DNA of 35,683 nt from an uncultured Anaerolineaceae bacterium (GTDB lineage Bacteria > Chloroflexota > Limnocylindria > Limnocylindrales > CSP1-4), in contig CAZVPS010000003.1 in assembly GCA_964629105.1 (NCBI GenBank), forward strand, positions 1 to 35,683, in the 5' to 3' direction. Below the pieces are notes generated by a model that saw only the letters and a list, made by a program, of their open reading frames with translations, was not told where the DNA came from and did not search any database. Numbering within the stretch: position 1 is the stretch's first letter; each line of letters begins with the position of its first letter. Positions 16,662 to 22,807 of this stretch are shown piece by piece. Position numbers and translations under genes: made by a program.

Positions 16662-17801
16662 CTACTTCGGCGGGGCCTCTTCCGTCGGCATCTTCAGGCG
16701 GTTCTGGAACTCCTTGCCGTTGACCGTGCCCGCGCCGATCTGGTTCGGGAAGTTGACCGACCCCTGGTCCTCCGTGTCGACCCGGCCGCCCGGGGCGTTC
16801 GAGGCGTTGTCGTCCTCATCGAACGCCCTGATGGAGGCGGGCCAGTCGACGTAGCGCCGGACGAGGGCCTTCGCGTCGACCGACTTGTAGACCTTGCCCT
16901 TGCCGTAGCTGTAGCTGTTCGCGATCCGGTCGAGGAGCGGCTGGACCTTGTCGATGTAGACCGATCGCGACTCCCTCACGTGCTTCTGCTCGTGCTTTTC
17001 GAGCGCCGCGGCTGCCTTGTCGGTCACGTACCAGCCGCCTCCCTGGTCGCCCGGGGCGCTCGAGACGTAGTCGCGCTTGACGTTAACGATGCCGGTGCCC
17101 TCCATCACCCAGGCGTCGGCGTTCTCCGTGAAGCCACCCCAGTACGAGTCGTAGTCCGGGTCGACCTTCTCCATGCTGCCGGCCGGCTGGTTGCCCTTCG
17201 GGCCGGCACCGCCACCGCCCGCCCAGGCCTTCGTCCCGGTCCGACCGCCACCGGTGAACGCGTGCGGCCGCAGGTCGCCGTCCGGGTGGAGGGGGTCGAA
17301 GCCCTCGTCCGCCGCGTCGCCGAAGGGCACGGACCCCTCGCGCCCCGCGTCCTGGAACTCGCCCGCGACGGCGGCCGGCTCGGCGATGGGGAAGGGGCCG
17401 CCGCCCACCTCGACCGGCTCCTCGTCGTCCGGCGGGAGATCCCGCTCGGCGCGCTTCTCCGCCTTCTCGGCCTTGGTCGGCACCTCGCCTTCCTCGAGCG
17501 CCGGGACCTCGCCGACGAGGGATTCGGGCGAAGGCTCCGGCCCGGCCGACTCGACGGGCTCCTCCTGTCGGCCGGTGGTCGGCGCCGGGGCGGCCGGGGC
17601 GGCCGCGCTCGGGCGCGCGCGCAGCATCTGGACCACGGCCGCGTTGCCGGCCGAGCGCTGCAGGCCCAGCAACGCGCCGACCGGGACCTGGCCGGGCGCT
17701 GCCGCGCCCATTCCAGGCGCGTCCGCCCGCCCCGGGACGCGAGCAGAGTCGAGCTCGGGTTCCTCGGCGAAGGGACGCCTGACGCCCAGGTGATCGCCCA
17801 T
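16662..17801 (-). CDS. Hypothetical protein with an eCIS-effector-type LQRxxGNxAV leader, acidic/Pro linker and C-terminal HExxH domain
   Basis: LLGLQRSAGNAAVVQML (motif at 17634-17663) and LEKHEQKH (HEQKH at 16980-16994). The start is uncertain; ATG 17801 was chosen. Confidence 0.75.
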   Translation of the reverse strand: MGDHLGVRRPFAEEPELDSARVPGRADAPGMGAAAPGQVPVGALLGLQRSAGNAAVVQMLRARPSAAAPAAPAPTTGRQEEPVESAGPEPSPESLVGEVPALEEGEVPTKAEKAEKRAERDLPPDDEEPVEVGGGPFPIAEPAAVAGEFQDAGREGSVPFGDAADEGFDPLHPDGDLRPHAFTGGGRTGTKAWAGGGGAGPKGNQPAGSMEKVDPDYDSYWGGFTENADAWVMEGTGIVNVKRDYVSSAPGDQGGGWYVTDKAAAALEKHEQKHVRESRSVYIDKVQPLLDRIANSYSYGKGKVYKSVDAKALVRRYVDWPASIRAFDEDDNASNAPGGRVDTEDQGSVNFPNQIGAGTVNGKEFQNRLKMPTEEAPPK

Positions 17802-17998
17802 CGAGAAGCGATGCTGGAGACAGGTAGCCCGGATGTCAACGCCGGCGCAAGGATCTGCCCGAAGGTGCAGGCCCGGGCCCTGGCCGTGCATGGATCGCCG
17901 GGGCCGGTCGCGGCCCGCGCCCGGACGAAGGCAGCCGCACGCGAGTGATGCCGCCGCCGGTGCTGACCGCCGGCGCCTCCGCGCCTGGATGAGGGAGC

Positions 17999-18050: not shown

Positions 18051-19328
18051 TCAGGGGTAGAGGCCGCGCAGGACGGAGGCCTCAGCGACGCGCTGCACGG
18101 CGATGGCGTGCGCGGCCCGCCGCGGTTCGATCCCGTCGGCGTCCGCCCGCTCCCAGACGGCAGCCGCGGCCGCCAGGATCGCCTCGCGCAACCGGCCGTT
18201 GATGAGCTTCGGGGTCCAGAAGAGCGACTCACGGTTCTGGACCCACTCGAAGTAGGAGACGATGACCCCGCCCGCGTTGCACAGGATGTCGGGGATGACC
18301 ACGACGCCGTTGTCCTGGAGGATCGGGTCGGCGTCGGGGGTCGTCGGGCCGTTCGCGCCTTCCGCGAGGATGCGGGCGCGGACGTTCCCGGCGTTCGCGG
18401 CCGTGATCTGGCCCTCCATGGCGGCGAGGACCAGGACGTCCACGTCGAGCCCGAACAGGTGCTCGTTGTCGATGGGCTCCGTCCCGGGCGCCCCTGCCAG
18501 GGAGCCGCGCTCCTGCATGAACCGCCGGAGGAAGGGCACGTCCAGGCCTTCTTCGCGGTAGACGCCGCCGCCGATGTCAGTGACGGCGACGACGCGCGCC
18601 CGGGCCTGGTGGAGGAGCCGGGCGGTCGCCTCTCCGACGTTGCCGAAGCCCTGGACGGCGGCCGTCGCGCCGGCGAGCGGGAACCCGAGACGCCGCGCTG
18701 CCGCCTCCTCGATCGTGTAGACGACGCCTTGCCCGGTCGCGTCGGCGCGGCCCTGGGAGCCGCCGATGGCCACCGGCTTCCCGGTGACCACACCGGGCAC
18801 GCTGTAGCCGCGGTGCATGGAGATGGTGTCCATGATCCAGGCCATCGTCTGGGCGTTCGTGCCCACGTCCGGGGCCGGGATGTCGGAATCCGGCCCGATG
18901 AGCACCTCGAGCTCAGTCGCGAAACGGCGCGTCAGTGCCTCTAGCTCCCTGGGGCTCATGGTCCGCGGGTCGCAGGTCACGCCGCCCTTGGCCCCGCCGA
19001 AGGGGACGTTCACGAGGGCACATTTCCAGGTCATCCACATCGCGAGGGCGCGGACCTCGTCGAGGTCGGTGCAGGGGTGGTAGCGCAGCCCGCCCTTGGC
19101 CGGCCCGCGCGCGACGTTGTGCTGCACGCGGTAGCCCGTGAAGACCCGGACGCTGCCGTCGTCGAGCCGGACCGGGAAGCGCACGGTCAGCTCGCGCTGC
19201 GGCGCCCGCAGGATCTGCCGGATCCCGTCGTCGAGACCCAGGTGGTCCGCCGCGGCGTCGAACTGGGCGAGGGCGGCGGCGAGGGCTCCGGCGCCGGGGG
19301 CGGGCGCGCGGGTGAGCAGCTGGGTCAT
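18051..19328 (-). CDS. gdhA: Glu/Leu/Phe/Val dehydrogenase (glutamate dehydrogenase)
   Basis: Motifs RGPAKGGLRY, MTWKCAL...PFGGAKGG, DIPAPDVGT, VTGKP..IGGS.GR, QGFGNVG, EGANGP, NAGGV.VSYFEWVQN. 425 aa. Confidence 0.95.
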   Translation of the reverse strand: MTQLLTRAPAPGAGALAAALAQFDAAADHLGLDDGIRQILRAPQRELTVRFPVRLDDGSVRVFTGYRVQHNVARGPAKGGLRYHPCTDLDEVRALAMWMTWKCALVNVPFGGAKGGVTCDPRTMSPRELEALTRRFATELEVLIGPDSDIPAPDVGTNAQTMAWIMDTISMHRGYSVPGVVTGKPVAIGGSQGRADATGQGVVYTIEEAAARRLGFPLAGATAAVQGFGNVGEATARLLHQARARVVAVTDIGGGVYREEGLDVPFLRRFMQERGSLAGAPGTEPIDNEHLFGLDVDVLVLAAMEGQITAANAGNVRARILAEGANGPTTPDADPILQDNGVVVIPDILCNAGGVIVSYFEWVQNRESLFWTPKLINGRLREAILAAAAAVWERADADGIEPRRAAHAIAVQRVAEASVLRGLYP

Positions 19329-19420
19329 CGATGGCTCCGGTCGGCTGGGCGGGGCCGGCCCGTGCCGGCGCAGTCCGCCCGAGAGCAGGGTCGCGCGCCC
19401 GCACGAACATGCCGATGGAC

Positions 19421-19476
19421 GCACATGAACGCCCCGTGAATATCCGGGCGGCGACATTCACGCGCCGTTCATGCGC
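19421..19476. promoter_or_regulatory. Imperfect 24-bp inverted repeat, each arm made of an 11-bp-spaced TGAA direct repeat (putative response-regulator sites)
   Basis: GCACATGAACGCCCCGTGAATATC-N8-GACATTCACGCGCCGTTCATGCGC. The arms match at 20/24 positions. Lies in the divergent gdhA intergenic region. Confidence 0.65.
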
Positions 19477-19592
19477 GTTCCCCGCCCGGTTCAGGTCCGC
19501 CGTCGACCATGCAGGGCGTGGCGTTCCGCCAGCACCGAGGGACGCGCCCGCCGGACGCCAACGCGGGCGCGTCCCGCCAGTCGAGGACCGAG

Positions 19593-19826
19593 ATGCCGAC
19601 GCAACCGACCTTCACCTGCGCCACCTGCGACGACGCGATCGCGGGCCGGCCGACCTTCCACCTCGGCCTCGCGTTCTGCTGCGCGGGCTGCGCCGCCGAC
19701 GGCCCGTGCATGTGCACCTACGACCACGAGGAACTTCATGACAGCCCCAGTGCCGCCGTTGTCGTCGACTTCGAGCTCCTCGCGGTGGCCGATGACGAGC
19801 GAAGCCCGGTGGGCGCTCGCGGTTGA
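19593..19826 (+). CDS. Small Cys-rich metal-binding protein (metallothionein/TRASH-like)
   Basis: 77 aa with CATC-x16-CCAGC-x5-CMC and a His/acidic tail. GAGGA SD before ATG 19593. Confidence 0.7.
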   Translation: MPTQPTFTCATCDDAIAGRPTFHLGLAFCCAGCAADGPCMCTYDHEELHDSPSAAVVVDFELLAVADDERSPVGARG

Positions 19827-20181
19827 GGCTGGCCATCTCGCTGCCGACCTGCGGCAGCCGGCGGATGCCCCCGTCACGCTCCCCCTTCGCCGTTCCGAGG
19901 CGGCAGCGCGGCTCGCGCTGATCCGGGCGATCCTCGACGGTGGGGAACTCGTCGACCACTGCGATCGGGCGGCCATCGGCCGTCGCGTGACCCTTCGGGA
20001 GGCGGACGGCGAGACGGTGACGTACGCCCTCGTGATCCCCGGCGACGGCGATCCCGGTCACGGCTGGCTGGCCATCGACACGCCGCTGGGGGCGGCGATC
20101 CTCGGCCGTCGCCCCGGAGACCGGGTGGGCGTCGCGGCCCCGGCGGGCGAACGCACCGTGGCCGTCGTGGGCGTGGCCTGA
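19738..20181 (+). CDS. GreA/GreB-family protein with a shortened N-terminal coiled coil (Rnk-like)
   Basis: C-domain AAIGRRVTLRE..GE..TYALV.PGDGDP..GWLAIDTPLGAAILGRRPGD.V.V.APAG. Lacks the GDLSENAEY acidic tip. Start is ATG 19738 (GAGGA SD) or 19792. Confidence 0.8.
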   Translation: MTAPVPPLSSTSSSSRWPMTSEARWALAVEAGHLAADLRQPADAPVTLPLRRSEAAARLALIRAILDGGELVDHCDRAAIGRRVTLREADGETVTYALVIPGDGDPGHGWLAIDTPLGAAILGRRPGDRVGVAAPAGERTVAVVGVA

Positions 20182-20214
20182 CCCGTGGCCGGACCCCCAG
20201 CGTATGCTCCCGTC

Positions 20215-21228
20215 GTGAAGTACGGCGCCGATCTCCCCGCGTCGGACGGACCCGGGCCGTCGCCGCTCGTCGGCTCGGCGCTGGCCCTCGTCGGCGAGGG
20301 CGCGACGCCGGCGGACCTCGTGGAACGGTTCGCCGCCGCCGGGGCCCACCTCGGCGAGGCGCGGGCCGTCGCCCTCCTGGCGGACCTGGCCGGATTGGGC
20401 CTCGTCCGCGTGGCGCGGCACAAGGGCGACGGCCGGGTCCACGTGCTCACCACTCTGGGGCGCCAGGTCCGCGATGCCGGCGTCGGCGCGAACGCGGAGA
20501 TCAACCTCCACCTCGCGGAGCTGGAGCGGCTGCGGACGGACCTGCTCTCCACGATCGCCCACGAGCTTCGGACCCCCCTCACCGCCGTGCGGACGTGCGT
20601 GGGCGTCCTCCGCGATCCCGAAACGACGCCGACGGCGGCGGAGCAGGATGCGCTCCTCGCCACGATCGAGCGGAACGCCGACCGGATGCAGCGCGTAGTC
20701 GGGGACATCCTCGAGATCGCCCGCTTTCGGACCGGCGGGGTGGTCCTCCAGCTGCGTCGCTTCGACGCGTCGGCGATGGCCCGCGGGGCCGTCGCCTCGC
20801 TGGCGCCCCTCGCGGCCCAGCGCGACCAGGCGATCGAGCTCGACGTGCCGGGCGCGCCGGTCCGGGTCTTCGGCGATCACCGCCGCCTGGAGCAGGCCGT
20901 CGTCAACCTCATCTCCAACGCCGTCAAGTACGGACCGCAGGGCGGCACGATCACGGTCCGCGTTCGTCCCGTGGGAAGCTCGGTCACCTGGGCGGTGACC
21001 GACCAGGGGCCCGGGATCCCGATCAACGAGCAGCCGCACCTGTTCGAGCGCTTCTTCGTCGGCCAGAACGACCGCAAGGGCGCCGGGGGCGGGGTCGGGC
21101 TGGGGCTGCCGACCGCCCTCGCGATCGCCCAGGCGCACGGCGGCGGAATCGATGTGACGAGCGTGCCGGGCTACGGCAGCGTTTTCAGCGTCGTGGTGCC
21201 CGCCGAGGGGCCGTCGGACGTGGAGTGA
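20215..21228 (+). CDS. Soluble sensor histidine kinase with an N-terminal winged-helix-like domain
   Basis: H-box IAHELRTPLT, N-box NLISNAVKY, G1 DQGPGI, F-box LFERFF, G2 GVGLGL. No TM segment. GTG 20215 lies 6 nt after TATGCT. Confidence 0.9.
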   Translation: MKYGADLPASDGPGPSPLVGSALALVGEGATPADLVERFAAAGAHLGEARAVALLADLAGLGLVRVARHKGDGRVHVLTTLGRQVRDAGVGANAEINLHLAELERLRTDLLSTIAHELRTPLTAVRTCVGVLRDPETTPTAAEQDALLATIERNADRMQRVVGDILEIARFRTGGVVLQLRRFDASAMARGAVASLAPLAAQRDQAIELDVPGAPVRVFGDHRRLEQAVVNLISNAVKYGPQGGTITVRVRPVGSSVTWAVTDQGPGIPINEQPHLFERFFVGQNDRKGAGGGVGLGLPTALAIAQAHGGGIDVTSVPGYGSVFSVVVPAEGPSDVE

Positions 21229-21923
21229 TGCGGATCCTGGTGGTGGACGACGCGCCGGACGTCGTGGAGTCGGTGCGCCTGGGGTTCACGCTCCAATGGC
21301 GCGACGTCGAGGTCCTGGGCGCCGGCACAGGCGAGCAGGCGCTCGACATCGTCGAGAGGGAGCGGCCTGACATCGTGCTCCTCGACGTGGGGCTGCCCGA
21401 CGTGGACGGCTTCGGGGTGCTCCGCGAGATCCGCCTCTTCTCCGACGTCCCCGTGGTGATGCTGACGGCACGCGACGACGCGATGGACAAGGTCAAGGGC
21501 CTGGAGCTGGGCGCCGACGACTACGTGACGAAGCCGTTCAACCACCTGGAGCTGATGGCCCGCGTGCGGGCGGTCCTGCGCCGCCACGAGATGCCGCCCC
21601 CGACCAGCCGCGCGCCGTCCTTCCGGGCCCTGGATCTCGAGGTCGACTTCGCCGCCCACGAGGTGCGGCTCTGCGGCGAGCGGCTCGACCTGACGCCCAC
21701 CGAGTACAAGCTCCTGTACCACCTCGTGCGGAACTCCGGGCACGTCCTCCAGCACGGGACCCTGCTGGCCAAGGTCTGGGGCCGCGAGTACCTCGACGAG
21801 GTCGACTACCTGCGCGTCTACGTCCGCCGTCTCCGCGACAAGCTCGGTGACGACCCCGACCATCCGCGGTACATCCGGACGGAGCGCGGGCTTGGCTACC
21901 GTTTCATCGCGGCCCGCGGCTGA
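21228..21923 (+). CDS. OmpR/PhoB-family response regulator (KdpE-like)
   Basis: Motifs ILVVDD, LLDVGLPDVDG, MLTA, GADDYVTKPF, LTPTEYKLL, LRVYVRRLRDKL, TERGLGYRF. TGATG overlap with the kinase. Confidence 0.95.
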   Translation: MRILVVDDAPDVVESVRLGFTLQWRDVEVLGAGTGEQALDIVERERPDIVLLDVGLPDVDGFGVLREIRLFSDVPVVMLTARDDAMDKVKGLELGADDYVTKPFNHLELMARVRAVLRRHEMPPPTSRAPSFRALDLEVDFAAHEVRLCGERLDLTPTEYKLLYHLVRNSGHVLQHGTLLAKVWGREYLDEVDYLRVYVRRLRDKLGDDPDHPRYIRTERGLGYRFIAARG

Positions 21924-22024: not shown

Positions 22025-22807
22025 ATGATGGAACGCAGCTCCCCCGCCCGGGCGGCACCGGCACGCACCCTCTGGTTCCCGCACCAGCACGGCGCCTGGG
22101 CGATGCTCGCCGTGCCGCTCCTCCTGGGCATCGCGGCCTCGGCCCCGTCGCCCTGGCATCTCGTCCTCGCCGGGGCGGCGGTCACGGGCTATCTCGCCGC
22201 CGCCACTGCCCAGGCGTGGCTGCGGGCGCGTCGGCGCCCGTCGTTCGTCCCCTCCCTCGCCCTCTACGGCGGCGTCTTCGCCGCGACCGGTGCGCTCCTG
22301 GTCCTGGCCTTCCCGTCCCTGCTGCTCGCCGCCGTCGTCGTCGTCCCGGCCGGCGCCCTGATCGTCGGCGGGGCGCGCCCGGGCACGCCGCGGGACCTGG
22401 TCACCAGCCTGGCCCAAGCCGCGATCGCCCTCGTGCTGGCACCGGCGGCCGCGCAGGTCTCGGGAGCGTGGGAGACGGACGCCGTGCTGCGGGCCACGCT
22501 CGTGGCCGCGGCCTATCTCGGGGGAACCATCCTGGTGGTCCGCTCGGTCATCCGGGAGCGCGGGAACCGCGGCTTCACGGCCCTCTCGGCGGCGTTCCAC
22601 GCCGCCCTCGTCGTGCTCGCGGCGGCCTTCCTCCCCTGGCCGTACGCGGCCTGCGCGGCGGGCCTCACCGCGCGCGCGATCGCCCTGCCGCTCGTCGAGC
22701 GCCGGCGGGCCGGGACCGCGCGCCCGCTCCGGCCGATCCACGTCGGCATCGTCGAGATCGTCGCCTCGACGATCCTGGTGGTCCTCGCCTTCGCGATCCC
22801 GCTGTAA
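22025..22807 (+). CDS. YwiC-like family membrane protein
   Basis: N-terminal P.QHGAWAML..P motif, about 8 hydrophobic helices, V..VRSVIRER and VGIVE motifs. The start may be ATG 22028. Confidence 0.8.
   Translation: MMERSSPARAAPARTLWFPHQHGAWAMLAVPLLLGIAASAPSPWHLVLAGAAVTGYLAAATAQAWLRARRRPSFVPSLALYGGVFAATGALLVLAFPSLLLAAVVVVPAGALIVGGARPGTPRDLVTSLAQAAIALVLAPAAAQVSGAWETDAVLRATLVAAAYLGGTILVVRSVIRERGNRGFTALSAAFHAALVVLAAAFLPWPYAACAAGLTARAIALPLVERRRAGTARPLRPIHVGIVEIVASTILVVLAFAIPL

Follow-up and report, generated by a model that had tools for sequence, protein, structure and literature searches.

A PadR-like winged helix ahead of the kinase core in a soluble histidine kinase of uncultured Chloroflexota

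We analysed a 35,683-nt stretch of DNA from an uncultured Anaerolineaceae bacterium of the Chloroflexota (assembly GCA_964629105.1, contig CAZVPS010000003.1, positions 1 to 35,683), referred to below as the window, in which a forward-strand gene codes for a soluble histidine kinase. The segment ahead of the kinase core is modelled as a domain of the winged helix-turn-helix (wHTH) type, for which PadR-like, at the level of the superfamily, is the best label. Our tentative reading is that this is a degenerate winged helix which does not read DNA and receives a signal, most likely through a small Cys-rich protein encoded in the same operon. The arrangement suggests a mode of signal input so far undescribed for two-component sensor kinases.

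A winged helix ahead of an intact kinase core

The kinase and its parts, with residues counted on the longer open reading frame (ORF), are as follows:

20185..21228, forward strand: soluble class-I (HisKA) histidine kinase (ORF list, Pfam and more than 100 same-length homologues)
20263..20490, forward strand: PadR-like winged-helix domain, ORF residues 27-102 (AlphaFold2, VIA-align, Foldseek and hhalign)
20347..20373, forward strand: turn and N-terminal half of helix 3, residues 55-63, HLGEARAVA (column entropy 2.40)
20491..20511, forward strand: Gly-rich variable tether between the wHTH and the first helix of the dimerisation and histidine phosphotransfer (DHp) domain (column entropy 2.36)
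20533..20733, forward strand: HisKA/DHp domain, residues 117-183 (Pfam)
20872..21207, forward strand: catalytic domain (HATPase_c), residues 230-341, in which the N, G1, F and G2 boxes are kept (Pfam)

The N-terminal domain was modelled with AlphaFold2 from an alignment of 30 sequences (A2), made up of the window, 14 loci of related genomes and 15 N-terminal fragments from a search of representative sequences, which gave a mean predicted local distance difference test (pLDDT) of 84.8 and a predicted template modelling score of 0.73. Helix H1 (27-36) is followed by a short strand, then by H2 (42-51), H3 (58-70), two wing strands (74-80 and 83-88) and H4 (90-102), and this order, H-(b)-H-H-b-b-H, is the winged-helix topology. 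When the model was compared with 48,161 representative chains using VIA-align, the best match was PadR of Bacillus subtilis (5x11; Z 12.4, rmsd 2.0, 84 of 86 residues), followed by RosR (Z 12.3), MarR (Z 11.9), STIV F93 and further PadR and MarR entries, and all 50 matches listed are winged-helix proteins. Foldseek likewise placed PadR, RosR and MarR on top, but with a best E value of only 1.4e-3 at a TM-score of 0.78. An Atlas look-up of the domain led to a PadR N-terminal cluster (best 0.76), which we treat as a lead only.

Assignment to a family is less direct. Ahead of HisKA, Pfam gives just a sub-threshold MarR_2 match to the kinase (residues 33-84; 13.7 bits, E 0.072), and the domain on its own reaches 17.7 bits (E 0.0041) against a cut-off of 27. 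Sub-threshold matches among the 30 domain sequences go to MarR_2 (9), the O-methyltransferase dimerisation domain (6), Replic_Relax (4) and HTH_20 (3), and PadR (PF03551, cut-off 27 bits) is not among the families found for them at E ≤ 1. In genome searches the PadR and FUR models matched other genes and not the kinase locus, which leaves the domain outside Fur (PF01475). The domain also departs from MarR (PF01047/PF12802) in having about 76 structured residues, no flanking dimerisation helices and a score below threshold. A profile search of PDB sequences returned sub-threshold rows only, the best being eS25 (E 0.025) and Zur of Streptomyces coelicolor (E 0.04, spanning domain positions 4-77). 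We also compared A2 by hhalign with PadR, Fur and MarR_2 domain alignments whose sequences came from related genomes: the probability was 96.3% for PadR (76 columns, P 1.8e-9), 83% for Fur (55 columns) and 56% for MarR. The domain thus resembles the PadR family in its wHTH fold with a subsequent helix and in a remote profile similarity. However, two marks of the PadR consensus, taken from the PadR profile built in this analysis, namely GY in helix 2 and GtlY/GxxY at the start of helix 3, lie opposite variable or Ala/Leu positions in the hhalign alignment. Since the curated models place the domain in no wHTH family and hhalign favours PadR, we use PadR-like as a label of superfamily rank.

The kinase ORF encodes 347 amino acids when read from a GTG at 20185 and 337 from a GTG at 20215, the latter being the start of an identical database protein (P0001), and lies in a window with a G+C content of about 73%. 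Its catalytic core is intact, with 61.8 bits for HisKA (PF00512; cut-off 26.9) and 96.1 bits for HATPase_c (PF02518; cut-off 26.4). The phospho-acceptor, His126 (20560-20562) in the motif AHELRTP, is invariant in all 34 aligned sequences, and so are the N, DxGxG, FERFF and GxGxG columns of HATPase_c (N231, N235, D263, G265, G267, F277-F281, G293, G295 and G297 in P0001 numbering). The H-box His, the HATPase_c boxes and an adjoining cognate regulator are all those of a class-I HisKA kinase, and the intact core together with that regulator points to a working two-component system with the wHTH as its input. A Pfam scan of the kinase ORF found no PAS, GAF or HAMP family at E ≤ 0.1, and no 19-residue window exceeds 1.6 on the Kyte-Doolittle scale (maximum 1.53), so that a transmembrane segment is not predicted. 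Some homologues are named PhoR in some sources. We rejected this name, as TIGR02966 scores 168.8 bits against an equivalog cut-off of 334.2, with a match confined to the kinase core (residues 110-337), and the input of PhoR is a transmembrane region plus PAS.

The domain is well conserved and travels with this kinase. Homologues that cover it number more than 100 proteins of 312-383 amino acids with 55-83% identity, and the 34-sequence alignment keeps the pattern SPL..AAL.LV..GAT...L..RF..GA......LL.EL..LGLVRVAR..G...VLT.LG, with ten invariant positions (L18, L23, L35, R38, L58, G62, L63, R65, T79 and G82 in P0001 numbering). Residues 1-115, searched with phmmer against 1.84 billion representatives, had 41 matches at E ≤ 1e-3. 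The true ones are HisKA carriers or N-terminal fragments, and rows for ankyrin, FG-GAP and other proteins were set aside as low-complexity noise. Among longer proteins found with the domain profile, 24 of 24 are HisKA+HATPase_c kinases of 332-378 amino acids. As far as tested, therefore, a wHTH domain of this type appears to be found only in this kinase family. It is present in 17 of 61 related genomes, many of which are incomplete; 18 of the 36 other genomes of the genus matched, two of these matches being noise, and none of the 24 genomes of the sister family did. The two noise matches, weak ones in genomes G003 and G009, fall in non-coding or unrelated frames and were discarded. A sample of the phylum contained the full wHTH-kinase in eight of 401 genomes, from at least four families. 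The domain profile also matched short ORFs in this sample (E 1e-6 to 4e-8), and the four of these that we examined all proved to be true FUR proteins. A scan of contigs with the full-length alignment, using kinase-core peptides, returned 79 unrelated kinases and a single orthologue (locus L001). Where source names are given for homologues, they are Chloroflexota or Limnocylindria.

These results confirm the observation made in an earlier note on this DNA, written from the letters and ORF translations alone, and support part of its interpretation. The translation it quoted is present at 20185/20215-21228, the PadR/MarR-like input it proposed is borne out by AlphaFold2, VIA-align and Foldseek, and the Pfam and hydropathy scans confirm its view that transmembrane, PAS and GAF segments are missing. 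A fold other than a wHTH, or a domain that is not conserved among orthologues, which it had taken as grounds for giving up the proposal, was not found. Its remark that such kinases are unusual also holds as far as tested. The open full-text literature, subscription journals lying outside the search, yielded no description of a histidine kinase with a PadR/MarR-like wHTH as its input, and a full-text search for Limnocylindria together with two-component systems or histidine kinases found no Limnocylindria paper.

Conservation is uneven along the domain. Column entropy, computed over 34 orthologues, is lowest in H1 (0.95) and in the C-terminal half of H3 (1.10), with the DHp domain at 0.36, and peaks over the turn and the N-terminal half of H3, a segment about as variable as the tether. 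PadR, MarR and Fur proteins use this half of H3 to read bases. The adjoining OmpR-type regulator served as an internal control: its recognition helix is invariant across 13 sequences of the same loci. This pattern of conservation suggests that the wHTH does not bind DNA. The distance from the LG motif of the wHTH to the phospho-acceptor His, scored in 112 of 129 proteins, is 31 residues in 32 proteins, 32 in nine, 33 in 70 and 35 in one. Such steps do not follow a heptad and, together with the Gly-rich composition of the tether, argue against a rigid signalling helix and for loose coupling.

Several further observations concern the kinase gene itself. In many orthologues a motif (A/G)YP(R)VV(M/K)(F/Y) precedes the wHTH (20200-20226, ORF residues 6-14), and gene callers disagree as to whether the kinase starts before or inside it. 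A 552-aa homologue (P0056) carries a receiver domain (PF00072) C-terminal to the kinase core, which may reflect a fusion of kinase and regulator or a gene call that reads through. In one orthologue (L096, G028:C6) the frames are broken in both the wHTH and the core, owing either to a pseudogene or to indel errors in an assembly that is 56% complete, and single frame breaks are also seen in loci L085, L086/L087 and L092.

The cassette around the kinase

The genes and intergenic elements next to the kinase are:

19593..19826, forward strand: 77-aa Cys-rich protein with a core at residues 1-44 and a variable tail (108 homologues, alignment A3)
21228..21923, forward strand: OmpR/PhoB-type response regulator (Response_reg 96.3 bits, Trans_reg_C 88.1 bits)
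18051..19328, reverse strand: Glu/Leu/Phe/Val dehydrogenase (GDH), divergent (Pfam ELFV_dehydrog, 237 bits)
19738/19792..20181, forward strand: GreA/GreB C-terminal-domain-only protein, Rnk-like (PF01272, 62 bits)
22025..22807, forward strand: YwiC-like membrane protein, 3' of the regulator (PF14256, 85.6 bits)
19404..19494, no strand assigned: two opposed arrays, each of about four GTTCA/GAAC-type hexamers at 10-12 bp spacing (13-locus alignment)
19354..19369, no strand assigned: GCCGGC-N4-GCCGGC palindrome within the leader of GDH, its arms conserved and its spacer variable

The Cys-rich protein has a nearly invariant core with seven cysteines (C9, C12, C29, C30, C33, C39 and C41) in the pattern C-x2-C-x16-CC-x2-C-x5-C-x-C, all of which are kept even in distant members. 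Its 108 homologues are all unnamed and carry no Pfam domains. Pfam gave no match for 34 members of the family, and neither PDB sequences nor NCBIfam gave one for the protein. A single-genome search likewise placed none of Metallothio_Pro (PF02069), YHS/TRASH (PF04945), zf-dskA_traR (PF01258) or Whib (PF02467) at 19593-19826 at E ≤ 10. The protein belongs to a small, unclassified family of Cys-rich proteins that is linked to this kinase. It probably binds metal, given its cysteine pattern: the spacings C-x2-C-x17-C-x2-C and C-x2-C-x5-C presumably recall zinc-ribbon and Fe-S motifs, and an Atlas look-up pointed to a prokaryotic metallothionein cluster (0.87), again as a lead only. Foldseek with the model of the protein returned scattered zinc-knuckle fragments (best E 1.9), from which no fold was drawn.

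Gene order is constant within the genus. In 16 of 16 loci, 14 of which were re-examined with 6 kb flanks, the divergent GDH gene is followed by the Cys-rich gene, the kinase and the regulator, with the Cys-rich gene directly upstream of the kinase throughout. In whole-genome searches, the 17 genomes of 61 that have the Cys-rich gene are exactly those that have the wHTH-kinase. Because these genomes are kin, the co-occurrence counts as one cassette and not as a set of independent events. The regulator, whose start codon overlaps the kinase stop codon, adjoins the kinase in all loci examined, and is 78-95% identical in the loci re-examined with 6 kb flanks and in those from other genera and families, except for L121 (58%). 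Six loci from other genera or families have the Cys-rich gene in three to four cases, the Gre-like gene in two and GDH in five.

The Gre-like protein, which starts at an ATG at 19792 or 19738 and whose gene overlaps the 3' end of the Cys-rich ORF, does not qualify as a GreA/GreB factor, as the Pfam listing contains PF01272 alone and no N-terminal Gre domain, and the NCBIfam GreA and Rnk models score far under their cut-offs. Its gene occurs in four of 24 kinase loci, those of the window, L001, L116 and L119, which belong to distant lineages, and it is absent from all 16 genus loci; this suggests an old member of the cassette that most of the genus has lost. For a partner that would dock on the kinase, one of the possibilities raised in the earlier note, the support is genomic, and it is strong for the Cys-rich protein and weak for the Gre-like one.

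The region between GDH, whose start at ATG 19328 is set by a conserved CAT and ribosome-binding-site block, and the Cys-rich gene contains conserved blocks in an alignment of 13 loci. One hexamer array (19404-19442) faces GDH and the other (19456-19494) faces the operon. A scan for GTTCAYG-N4-GTTC gave three matches where 0.52 were expected, and two of these lie in 19404-19494 on opposite strands. OmpR/PhoB regulators bind direct repeats at a spacing of one helical turn, and the arrays are therefore likely candidate sites for the regulator at divergent GDH and operon promoters, through which it would control GDH and its own operon. The palindromic GCCGGC element could be an operator or an RNA hairpin. 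Rfam had no match in 19200-20300 (best E 0.98), and a scan for sigma-70 promoters and terminators gave 0 sites, which is uninformative at 73% GC.

Some neighbouring features stand apart from the cassette. The YwiC-like gene lies downstream in 10 of the 14 genus loci re-examined, and its product is a possible membrane partner of the soluble kinase. A 409-aa ORF on the reverse strand (16662-17891) has a codon usage like that of coding sequence and matches no family of Pfam (best E 0.3), and a short piece of it is kept beside GDH in one relative (L109). In a metatranscriptome run (X1), contigs that are 90-99% alike, and thus come from relatives, cover the 3' part of the kinase and the regulator, one contig of 584 nt spanning the kinase-regulator junction (20817-21399), and none covers the wHTH or the Cys-rich region. 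Being those of relatives, these contigs are no evidence of transcription in this organism.

Proposed signal input through the winged helix

The reading that we put forward, at somewhat less than even confidence, is that of a cytoplasmic HisKA kinase whose sole input module would be a degenerate PadR-like wHTH, held on a flexible Gly-rich tether before the DHp helix. The wHTH would be an interaction module that has lost the ability to read DNA, and would most likely take up the state of the co-encoded seven-Cys protein, a probable sensor of metal or of Fe-S/thiol state. That state would set the balance between kinase and phosphatase activity, and the OmpR-type regulator would then act on the GTTCA-type arrays between the operon and the divergent GDH gene. 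Binding of the wHTH to the Cys-rich protein, and of the regulator to the arrays, is predicted here from conservation and gene context.

A number of observations weigh against this reading. The Cys-rich protein matches no metal-protein family tested and its AlphaFold2 model is poor (pLDDT 55). Loci L120 and L121 keep the wHTH kinase with no Cys-rich gene within 1.5 kb, and in L001, a locus from a Chloroflexia metagenome-assembled genome, a Cys-rich gene of 37% identity lies at the far side of GDH. Co-occurrence among kin speaks for a cassette and not for contact, and the Cys-rich protein could be a regulated product of the system, or it could dock on the DHp or catalytic and ATP-binding (CA) domain instead of the wHTH. 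Net charge and pI, which we had considered as an argument against DNA binding, were dropped, because in the same genomes the domains of Fur, PadR and MarR lie just as close to neutrality and net charge fails to separate the wHTH from these true DNA-binding domains. Finally, the GCCGGC-N4-GCCGGC palindrome lies next to the operon, its arms conserved in this intergenic region in all 13 loci aligned, and a recognition helix that varies might in principle be co-evolving with its site.

The last point speaks for a kinase tethered to DNA, which the earlier note had offered as one possibility: a dimer of the wHTH would bind DNA, for example the palindrome, and its occupancy would place the kinase at a promoter or gate its activity. 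The fold is indeed that of the DNA-binding PadR/MarR regulators, several wing arginines are retained, with R65 (P0001 numbering) invariant, and ChiS offers a precedent for a kinase that binds DNA directly (PMC8092284). The conservation pattern nevertheless does not support tethering: the half of H3 that would read DNA is the most variable segment of the domain, the GY and GxxY positions of PadR are absent, and the recognition helix of the regulator is invariant. Lys and Arg, moreover, make up 9% of the wHTH compared to 12-14% of the control DNA-binding domains. We keep this explanation among the rivals on account of the conserved palindrome, but consider it unlikely; the place of the palindrome in the leader of GDH would fit an RNA hairpin, or another factor's site, just as well. 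A further and also rather improbable explanation is a ligand that binds in the kinase dimer, either at its wHTH domains or between them, and alters their packing against the DHp domain. PadR and MarR proteins respond to ligands, the kinase has no other input domain, and a glutamate- or nitrogen-linked metabolite would fit the GDH neighbour, which is conserved and divergent in most loci. The pockets of PadR and MarR proteins, however, need C-terminal or flanking dimerisation helices that this 76-residue domain does not have, a variable Gly-rich tether is poorly suited to allosteric coupling, and no conserved polar pocket residues are evident, the invariant positions belonging mostly to the hydrophobic core.

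The same prevalence of core residues among the conserved positions would also fit a structural remnant, in which the wHTH aids only dimerisation, solubility or localisation and control resides elsewhere, for instance in the CA domain or in the expression level. An analogy exists in the wHTH "Dimerisation" domain of O-methyltransferases, to which the sub-threshold matches of six of the 30 domain sequences and of several fragments point, and the two loci that lack a Cys-rich neighbour agree with it. Yet a pure spacer would be expected to decay or vanish, whereas this domain, which has a conserved SPL/RF/LGLVR surface pattern, persists at 40-80% identity in several of the phylum's families, and we regard this explanation as doubtful. 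The most speculative and least probable proposal is a kinase resident at the promoter, with a wHTH dimer on GCCGGC-N4-GCCGGC beside the GTTCA arrays and phosphotransfer on the DNA, gated by the seven-Cys protein (metal, Fe-S or thiol) and, in some lineages, by the Gre-like factor of the RNA-polymerase channel. If true, it would couple a two-component system directly to the transcription complex at the GDH/operon control region.

Relation to known systems

Input domains define what a two-component system senses, and their catalogue consists mostly of PAS, GAF, HAMP and periplasmic folds. A kinase with a repurposed DNA-binding fold as its sole input would add a new input logic, be it a receiver of a protein or ligand or a DNA tether, and these three genes would make a small, tractable system in which to see how control of a DHp domain can come from one that is non-helical and flexibly tethered. 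Our data also suggest what may regulate glutamate dehydrogenase in uncultured Chloroflexota, which have been little studied.

PadR regulators (5x11; PadR-like 4ejo, 4esf and 5h20; LmrR 4zzd) share with the kinase domain the H-b-H-H-b-b topology and a helix that comes after it. Unlike them, the kinase domain misses the Pfam PadR model and lacks GY in H2 and GxxY in H3. It is fused to a kinase core and not to a C-terminal dimerisation helix or domain, and it is unlikely to bind DNA, judged from its conservation pattern. With MarR and Fur it has the wHTH fold in common (MarR Z 11.9), and its profile picks up true FUR proteins, but it is without the dimerisation helices of MarR and without the metal-binding C-terminal domain of Fur.

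Soluble kinases controlled by small partner proteins are known in NtrB with PII and in KinA with Sda or KipI. Like these, the kinase described here is cytoplasmic and has no membrane sensor, and a small co-encoded protein is the candidate carrier of its signal. The partners of NtrB and KinA, in contrast, target the DHp or CA domain in kinases whose input is a PAS domain, whereas here a wHTH is paired with an unclassified seven-Cys candidate. The serine kinase Rio2 (1tqi) likewise has an N-terminal wHTH (VIA-align Z 9.8, rank 43), but its kinase fold is unrelated and it serves ribosome biogenesis in eukaryotes and archaea, so that the likeness is one of architecture only. The nearest published kinase with an HTH-type domain is ChiS of Vibrio cholerae, a DNA-binding hybrid sensor kinase (PMC8092284). 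There the domain is C-terminal and a helix-sheet-helix variant, and ChiS acts as a membrane-bound regulator of one-component-like type, whereas the protein studied here combines an N-terminal PadR-like wHTH with a soluble kinase that has a regulator of its own.

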